This document shows positions 1-753 of a DNA stretch of 64,000 nucleotides, one piece after another. The notes beneath the pieces were generated by a model. It did not search any database. It was not told where the DNA came from and worked only from the letters and a program-made list of their open reading frames with translations. The stretch is from Escherichia coli. GTDB lineage: Bacteria > Pseudomonadota > Gammaproteobacteria > Enterobacterales > Enterobacteriaceae. How positions within the stretch are numbered: the stretch's first letter is position 1; each line of letters opens with the position of its first letter. The stretch lies in assembly GCF_003334305.1 (NCBI RefSeq), contig NZ_QOWS01000004.1; one strand, given 5' to 3'. Both the position numbers and the translations under genes were made by a program.

Positions 1-68
1 CGGGAGGATTCGAACCTCCGACCGCTCGGTTCGTAGCCGAGTACTCTATCCAGCTGAGCTACGGATGC
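1..68 (-). tRNA. argY: tRNA-Arg (anticodon ACG), 3' end cut by window edge
   Basis: Reverse complement reads GCATCCGTAGCTCAGCTGGATAGAGTACTCGGCTACGAACCGAGCGGTCGGAGGTTCGAATCCTCCCG, identical to the full copy at 266-342; symbol assigned by position in the K-12 serV-argV-argY-argZ-argQ cluster. Confidence 0.9.
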
Positions 69-132
69 ATCGGGAAACTTACTTTACTGCAGATTTTTTG
101 ATACCGCTACTAAAGCCGTATCAAGTAAGAGG

Positions 133-151
133 TGGTGCATCCGGGAGGATT
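133..151 (-). other. 19-nt fragment identical to the 3' end (acceptor/T-arm plus CCA) of tRNA-Arg, inside the inter-tRNA spacer
   Basis: tggtgcatccgggaggatt matches the first 19 nt of the tRNA copies at 266 and at window start, then diverges. Confidence 0.6.
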
Positions 152-265
152 ACTCGCCTTGCGGCTCGCCCTTCGGGCCGTTGCTAAAGCAACGTTATCC
201 TCCCTGGTGCCTGCGGTTATACCGCCACCTCTTCCATACCTTCATCGCTGAAAGTACGTAGAATA

Positions 266-342
266 TGGTGCATCCGGGAGGATTCGAACCTCCGACCGCT
301 CGGTTCGTAGCCGAGTACTCTATCCAGCTGAGCTACGGATGC
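266..342 (-). tRNA. argV: tRNA-Arg (anticodon ACG), complete 77 nt with encoded CCA
   Basis: Reverse complement gives canonical cloverleaf GCATCCGTAGCTCAGCTGGATAGAGTACTCGGCTACGAACCGAGCGGTCGGAGGTTCGAATCCTCCCGGATGCACCA. Confidence 0.95.
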
Positions 343-345
343 AAA

Positions 346-438
346 TGGCGGTGAGGCGGGGATTCGAACCCCGGATGCAGCTTTTGACCGCATACTCCCT
401 TAGCAGGGGAGCGCCTTCAGCCTCTCGGCCACCTCACC
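346..438 (-). tRNA. serV: tRNA-Ser (anticodon GCU), 93 nt with long variable arm
   Basis: Reverse complement GGTGAGGTGGCCGAGAGGCTGAAGGCGCTCCCCTGCTAAGGGAGTATGCGGTCAAAAGCTGCATCCGGGGTTCGAATCCCCGCCTCACCGCCA; 3 nt from argV. Confidence 0.95.
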
Positions 439-753
439 ACACGCCTCTTACGAGTGCTTCGAAGAACTTGTTTATCGCTCATCGTCGCTGCGTGGCGCAC
501 ATATTACTTTCTGAGACTTATAAGTCAAACAATTTTTCCTACACTTTTATCGTTTGCACACTTCACGTTCAATTAGTCTGTAAAAACGTCAAAAAGAGTG
601 TTTTATCAACAGAAAAATGGAGGTCTGACAGATAGTAGTAATGCAAAAAAATGGAGACTTAAGTTGAATGAACGGGAGTAAAGCGAAAAGACTATAGAGT
701 GAAGGAGAAATTTTGAGGGTGCGTCTCACCGATAAAGATGAGACGCGGAAAGA

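Follow-up and report, generated by a model that had tools for sequence, protein, structure and literature searches.

raV, a tRNA-linked repeat in the argV-argY spacer of Escherichia coli, and its possible role as a tRNA-like processing handle

The serV-arg locus and the structured element in its first long spacer

The window, a stretch of 64,000 nucleotides from Escherichia coli (assembly GCF_003334305.1, contig NZ_QOWS01000004.1), corresponds at its left end to the alaS-csrA-serV-argV-argY locus, which is transcribed from the minus strand. This end was matched in 5,426 of 5,426 complete E. coli genomes, and K-12 and strain 504211 were used to assign the genes; the K-12 counterpart is alaS-csrA-serV-argV-argY-argZ-argQ, with all genes on the minus strand in the orientation of the window. 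Both ARAGORN and Rfam placed the spacer between the two tRNA-Arg copies at positions 69-265 (197 nt), as the preliminary description had stated, and this is the argV-argY spacer. It was present at a coverage of at least 80% in 5,097 of the 5,426 genomes, with 1-6 matching places per genome, and no annotated RefSeq feature was found under it in this set. The features of the region, including the element that we identify below as the tRNA-linked repeat (TLR) raV, are listed in Table 1.

Table 1. Features at the left end of the window (positions in the window, strand and supporting evidence)
Feature	Position	Strand	Evidence
argY, tRNA-Arg(ACG), 5' 68 nt, cut by the window edge	1..68	-	Rfam tRNA 50.8 bits, 3'-truncated; identical to 275-343
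B-type spacer, ordinary ~62-64-nt leader ahead of a tRNA-Arg gene, hairpin ~99-124	69..132	-	same sequence after argY and raZ in K-12; fold
Exact copy of the last 19 nt of tRNA-Arg (T-loop AAUCC, 3' strands of T-stem and acceptor, ACCA), forming the 3' side of the closing helix	133..151	-	
TLR core element raV: closing helix, three hairpins, tRNA-like tail	133..212	-	covariance model R1, 102.2 bits, E = 1e-28, sole copy in the window
Hairpin 3, GCC-GCAA-GGC, variable in sequence, pairing kept	156..165	-	columns 49/60 and 50/59 with GC, CG and AU pair types
Hairpin 2, GCCC-GAA-GGGC ("tetraloop" of the preliminary description)	168..178	-	sequence, fold, alignment
Hairpin 1, CGUUGC-UUUA-GCAACG	179..194	-	fold; 98.8% of cells paired, pairs invariant
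Closing-helix 5' strand, GCACC-A-GGGAGGAU	197..210	-	folds; compensatory changes at columns 10/73, 11/72 and 14/69
A-type leader of the TLR unit: hairpins A1 (235-258) and A2 (213-225)	213..265	-	folds
argV, tRNA-Arg(ACG)	266..342	-	ARAGORN and Rfam
serV, tRNA-Ser(GCU), first gene of the operon	346..438	-	ARAGORN and Rfam
Promoter-like site 5' of serV	501..528	-	consensus match only

Several calls in this region were discarded. The plus-strand tRNA-Arg(tcg) reported by ARAGORN at 251-322 and the sub-threshold Rfam matches to Plastid-ycf2 and psbI (plus strand, 268-342 region) are antisense artefacts of argV and serV. A terminator role was ruled out, since no terminator-like site (a GC-rich hairpin followed by a U tract) was present in positions 1-800. 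A coding role was also ruled out; the only ORFs are spurious and either cross the tRNA genes or belong to the strand that is not transcribed. Neither ARAGORN nor the Rfam tRNA model recognized a cloverleaf on the minus strand of 69-265, as a tRNA or pseudo-tRNA would require, and the part of tRNA-Arg that is copied in the spacer comprises only the T-stem and the acceptor 3' strand.

The sequence TGGTGCATCCGGGAGGATT is found at two places only, as the 3' end of the argV tRNA gene itself (266-284) and as its copy at 133-151, with 19 of 19 identities, and zero matches were obtained in 100 shuffles even when two mismatches were allowed. The preliminary description had reported this exact repeat, and it had also read correctly the tract at 197-211, atcctccctggtgcc; a repeat search revealed that the arms 137-153 and 194-210 are 82% complementary. 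The tetraloop hairpin that it placed at 167-178 had to be corrected, because the letters at this position are cgcccttcgggc and not gcccTTCGgggc. The real hairpin is GCCC-TTC-GGGC (168-178), with a 4-bp stem and a 3-nt loop, which on the transcribed minus strand becomes a GAA triloop, with no UUCG tetraloop.

Folding of the minus-strand RNA of 133-211 gave -38.9 kcal/mol, as compared with -23.9 +/- 2.9 for the shuffled sequences (z = -5.15). In the predicted structure an outer helix encloses three hairpins and the ACCA tail is left free. On the RNA strand this helix consists of 8 perfect base pairs and a 5-bp extension with bulges, an imperfection that arises because the t140:g207 pair of the plus strand turns into an A:C mismatch. 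When the whole spacer was folded (-81.6 versus -54.5 for the shuffles, z = -6.74), the structure of the 133-211 element was retained. These minus-strand folds support the earlier proposal that a large structured element is formed on the polycistronic serV-argVYZQ transcript.

In the predicted fold of the precursor, positions 226-233 pair with 127-134, sequestering the last CA of the CCA and 6 nt downstream of it. The resulting 8-bp helix (AAGAGGUG with CACCUCUU) can surround the entire TLR, and it is strengthened by the C that the strain of the window has right after the CCA, where K-12 has U. The modular layout of the 213-265 leader was likewise predicted in Klebsiella and Phytobacter.

Membership in the tRNA-linked repeat family

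The element is not new: it is raV, an already catalogued TLR, and its membership in this family, which the preliminary description had overlooked, is near certain. According to the account given in PMC8144298, TLRs were first seen by Egan & Landy (1978), and Rudd (1999, Res Microbiol 150:653) compiled the catalogue. K-12 has 22 copies at ten loci, their hallmark is that the final 18-19 bp repeat those of the tRNA or rRNA that lies upstream, and they are described as having "no known function" (PMC8144298). The TLRs of the arginine operon are raV, raZ and raQ; the strain table of the same paper, which places raV among the 22 copies of K-12, includes a mutant devoid of all 22 TLRs and lists an "argY/Z/Q, raQ/Z/V" deletion (PMC8144298).

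As expected for a TLR, raV lies directly downstream of a stable RNA gene and on the same strand, between argV and argY of the serV-argVYZQ operon. It shares with the TLRs of K-12 this intra-operon site just after a tRNA gene, the 18-19-bp tail identity and the sequence of the core; it differs from K-12 raV in a few bases, for example CACCACCUCUU in the window versus CACCAUCUCUU just past the CCA. Comparison of the spacers of the cluster revealed that the tRNA 3'-end fragment noted in the preliminary description is also found in the argZ-argQ spacer and downstream of argQ, and that it is absent from the 62-nt argY-argZ spacer.

In a permissive scan, the Rfam model of RtT (RF00391) aligned to 133-259 of the minus strand with 28.3 bits (E = 0.004), below the 45-bit gathering threshold. 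The arg cluster of K-12 gave three sub-threshold matches to the same model (argV-argY, argZ-argQ and downstream of argQ; 22.8-31 bits), and the E values of all the arg elements were 0.004-0.4. Because these scores fall below the threshold, RefSeq leaves the arg TLRs unannotated. The Lys-linked TLRs of the E. coli lysT-valT-lysW cluster (L031:2266-2344 and 2489-2564), with 55-61 bits, pass the RtT threshold, whereas the Arg-linked copies (23-31 bits) fail; therefore, automated annotation labels some members of the family and leaves others blank. The EcoGene 3.0 paper mentions intergenic repeat families and does not refer to TLRs by name.

RtT (rttR; RF00391), which also belongs to the TLR family, is encoded at tyrT-tyrV and released from a tRNA precursor. 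It has a core homologous to that of raV, ending in GAGUAAUCC, and its closing helix also uses the 3' end of the host tRNA. Four full copies were detected with the Rfam RtT model at the tyrT-tyrV locus of K-12 (133-137 bits). When the Arg and Tyr elements were set side by side, a common core was apparent, composed of CGUUGC-loop-GCAACG, RCCCGAAGGGY, a variable third hairpin and GAGU(A/C)AUCC; past this core, the tail is the tRNA-Arg 3' end in the Arg elements and the tRNA-Tyr 3' end in the Tyr elements. RtT is a long form of ~130-171 nt, with an extra hairpin, the T-stem 5' strand copied together with UUCGA, and a tRNA-Tyr tail, whereas raV is a short form of ~80 nt with a tRNA-Arg tail. The annotated rttR RNA starts 7 nt past tyrV, and its 3' end coincides with the pseudo-CCA of the element. 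A role in the stringent response was first claimed for RtT and has since been withdrawn (PMC8144298).

The 5S-linked TLRs RrA, RrB and RrF, located between the dual terminators of rrnA, rrnB and rrnD (PMC8144298), have the same core of hairpins 1 and 2 as raV. Their 3' end also copies the upstream stable RNA, which in this case is the 5S rRNA 3' end, unlike the tRNA-Arg tail of raV, and GGA motifs are predicted in their loops, which is not the case for raV. The ends of RrB map to RNase E-type sites; RrA, RrB and RrF are processed there from a precursor, and the authors propose that the repeat directs RNase E (PMC8144298). Another 5S-linked TLR was observed at L033:7801-7866. 3'ETS-leuZ is, as raV would be, a spacer by-product of the processing of a tRNA operon, a class that persists as discrete RNAs; unlike raV, it base-pairs with sRNAs and has neither the tRNA-end mimic nor the TLR core.

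Covariation, anatomy and distribution of the elements

To evaluate the proposed structure we used an alignment of 28 short-form elements, Arg- and Lys-linked. Standard pairs occupied 88% of the cells of this structure, as compared with 25-50% when the partners were slid, and the covariation score (0.157 versus 0.061 in shuffles) was reached by 0 of 500 shuffles. Eight pairs showed changes on both sides. The informative changes are compensatory and lie in hairpin 3 and the closing helix; the invariance of hairpins 1 and 2 is weakly informative, because both fell within the search pattern. The 5' strand of the closing helix follows the host tRNA, with GGGAGG/CCUCCC in E. coli Arg, GGGAAG/CUUCCU in Hafnia, GAGAGG/CCUCUC in Pragia and GUGAAGG/CCUGCAC in the Lys elements. 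The covariance model R1, built from this alignment and thus with Arg and Lys copies only, found the four tyrT RtT copies (E ~1e-7) as well as 5S-, Pro-, Ser- and Arg(CCG)-linked copies. Since R1 recovers the RtT copies of tyrT and the RtT model aligns to the arg elements, homology is supported in both directions.

Long forms were found among the Tyr, Pro, many Lys, and the Yersinia and Serratia Arg elements. In these, the T-stem 5' strand of the host tRNA followed by UUCG is located a constant ~39 nt ahead of the scan motif GCAACG...GA, so that the long form resembles the 3' portion of a tRNA whose T loop has received the hairpin module. In the short forms (E. coli Arg and some Lys copies), the closing strand directly abuts hairpin 1. 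The helix reaches the discriminator base in the Arg copies only, where 13 bp plus ACCA come near the 12-bp acceptor/T-arm stack of a tRNA; in the Tyr and Lys copies it ends at ~10 bp and leaves an 8-nt tail. Two of the Arg-linked long forms carry larger tRNA segments: a 22-nt exact copy that extends from the anticodon stem to the T loop in Yersinia nurmii (L084), and a 9-nt exact copy in Serratia grimesii (L066). In both, the order is tRNA, terminator-like hairpin, copy of the tRNA segment, core and tRNA tail, and the trailer past the pseudo-CCA repeats the trailer past the real tRNA.

A pattern scan for GCAACGNCCCGAAGGGNGA, with one genome per species, yielded at least 120 loci, and ARAGORN was run on each. 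Among the loci listed, the core followed genes for tRNA-Tyr, Arg(ACG), Arg(CCG), Lys, Pro and Ser(UGA), and it was also embedded in copied 5S rRNA 3' ends; these loci belonged to Enterobacterales, to Gilliamella and Zophobihabitans, to Photobacterium, and to Marinobacterium and Amphritea. Of the 108 listed elements that have a tRNA upstream on the same strand, 85 copy its final 18 nt exactly, with ~11 more being 1 nt off, and at these loci the tails followed species-specific tRNA variants (4 Arg, 3 Tyr and 3 Lys). In several of the listed elements from outside Enterobacterales, the match between the tail and the host tRNA is limited to the first 10-13 nt. Chance matches accounted for ~25 of the 120 listed loci; these lie inside ORFs, with no tRNA nearby, in Actinomycetota, Alphaproteobacteria, Lentisphaerae and others. 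This number is near the ~35 random matches expected for 17 specified bases given the size of the database.

The TLR-like elements outside Enterobacterales were those of Marinobacterium and Amphritea (L006 and L065; tRNA-Arg CCG) and Photobacterium (L058 and L034), and further ones were found in Gilliamella and Zophobihabitans (L039, L040, L071, L072 and L076). In several of the elements from outside Enterobacterales, the matching part of the tail spans the T loop and the T-stem 3' strand and reaches into the acceptor strand, with no CCA. A different arrangement was observed in Pectobacterium zantedeschiae (L028:976-1200 minus; L027:9690-9760 minus), where ~79-nt tandem repeats lie downstream of a protein-coding gene. 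These repeats contain the module of hairpins 1 and 2 (AACGUUGC..GCAACGGCCCGAAGGGUG), a hairpin with an AAGGAU loop and an A-rich linker, and no tRNA or copy of a tRNA end was found near them, which indicates that the core module exists outside tRNA operons too.

Within E. coli the presence of the element is variable. The genomes of O157:H7 Balcarce and M-17 have 62-nt spacers after argV and only the terminal TLR copy, and BH100 has no arg TLR. The serV-arg cluster is thus polymorphic, with 4 or 5 tRNA-Arg genes and 0, 1 or 3 TLRs (L124, O157:H7 Balcarce_24.2; L125, M-17; L126, BH100; compared with positions 1-440 of the window), and in a 102-nt spacer of the O157 genome (L124:911-1012) the hairpin of the A-type leader is kept and the TLR core is missing. 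Given these naturally TLR-poor strains and the published strain without all 22 TLRs, any function of the element is non-essential; its absence from many natural E. coli together with the same mutant means that any benefit must be small.

Possible role of raV and competing explanations

From our analysis, the most likely role of raV is that of a tRNA-like processing handle, a model to which we give about an even chance. The tRNA-identical 3' end, presented on a tRNA-like helix, would be read as a tRNA 3' end by the maturation enzymes. RNase E would cut just downstream of the pseudo-CCA and 3' exonucleases would trim back to the CCA, and RNase P might act on the 5' flank of the Arg helix of 13 bp. 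As a result, the long spacer would be excised cleanly as a compact, CCA-ended RNA of ~80-130 nt, and the flanking tRNAs would be released normally. We infer these steps for raV by analogy, given that rttR ends at the pseudo-CCA of its element and that the ends of RrB lie at RNase E-type sites (PMC8144298). The suggestion in the preliminary description that the spacer holds a processing site can be retained to this extent, with the tRNA-identical 3' end as a plausible signal. RNase P recognition would not be family-wide, because only the Arg copies mimic the acceptor in full (13 bp plus ACCA); for this reason, mimicry of an RNase P minihelix was downgraded as a general mechanism.

The exact identity of the 3' end could stem from concerted evolution of the repeat array instead of selection, since the sequence past the pseudo-CCA is homologous to that past the real tRNA-Arg genes. 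Taken further, raV could be a neutral relic, that is, a copy of the tRNA-Arg gene in a tandem array in which the 5' part was replaced, the 3' identity is due to unequal crossing-over and gene conversion, and the RNA is functionless. The variation of the arg TLRs from 0 to several copies among E. coli genomes and the existence of the strain without all 22 TLRs are in line with this explanation, as are the match between the sequences past the pseudo-CCA and past the real tRNA genes, which suggests a duplicated unit, and the up to 22 nt of host tRNA sequence that long forms retain upstream of the core. However, the three-hairpin core has been kept behind different tRNAs and 5S rRNA in Enterobacterales, Orbales, Vibrionales and Oceanospirillales, and both hairpin 3 and the 5' strand of the closing helix show compensatory changes. 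Gene conversion is an unlikely cause of the changes in this strand, because its flanks are not homologous to the tRNA. We consider a neutral origin of this kind unlikely.

A trans-acting regulatory RNA or a protein sponge, similar to RrA, RrB and RrF (Hfq, CsrA) or to 3'ETS-leuZ, is a less probable explanation still, and we regard it as improbable. It would agree with the compact and stable fold of raV, with the location of the element next to csrA, and with the in vitro binding of Hfq and CsrA by its relatives RrA, RrB and RrF (PMC8144298). Nevertheless, the 19 tRNA-linked TLRs had scores below 0.01 in a CsrA-sponge predictor (PMC8144298). Moreover, the GGA motifs of raV (GGGAGGAU) are in the closing helix and its hairpin loops are UUUA, GAA and GCAA, so that it does not resemble CsrB or RrA as a CsrA sponge, and no target or partner of raV is known.

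Direct repeats of a tRNA 3' end that begin in the T loop resemble the attL/attR sites of tRNA-targeting islands, and the preliminary description had considered that this repeat could be the footprint of an integrase; we find it very improbable that it is an att-site duplicate left by an integrated or excised element, given that only 133 nt lie between the repeats, with no credible ORF and none on the transcribed strand, that one core is associated with the ends of at least five stable RNAs (Tyr, Arg, Lys, Pro and 5S), for which many different integrases would be needed, that in long forms the core splits a tRNA-like segment at the T loop and is not flanked by intact copies, and that the phage and plasmid collections, in which the matching records were mostly mis-filed chromosomal ones of megabase size, offered no genuine mobile context. 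TLR-like sequences were also seen in OR850888.1 ("Salmonella phage S.Kent 1-2-1", 7,356 bp, unannotated) and in two Klebsiella records filed as plasmids (14 kb and 121 kb); all three are probably chromosomal fragments or misassemblies.

Overall, we consider it highly probable that the element is raV, transcribed as part of the serV-argVYZQ precursor, folded through its closing helix, provided with a copied tRNA-Arg tail, presumably excised as a tRNA-like handle, and non-essential. Its value as a discovery is small, since catalogues have listed the element for decades and a TLR-free strain has been built; given that the arg copies are unannotated, scans keep rediscovering them.

A broader and more doubtful possibility, to which we give well below an even chance, is that the TLRs are not an E. 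coli curiosity and represent a selected and widespread gammaproteobacterial family of tRNA-mimic RNAs, with a three-to-four-hairpin module that in the long forms interrupts the T loop of an incomplete tRNA copy, and with a closing 5' strand that co-evolves with the 3' end of the host tRNA. This anatomy may have been described in part by Rudd (1999). Whether these RNAs act as processing devices or do something more can be approached through the tail specific to each host, the covariation in the closing helix, the insertion of the module in the T loop, and natural alleles that have or lack the element. Many copies that score below the threshold (the Arg, Pro and Ser ones and those from outside Enterobacterales) currently carry no annotation. 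If the TLRs are indeed a selected family, a conserved molecular partner would be expected for the core, or else a role of the core in the processing or quality control of tRNA operon transcripts.
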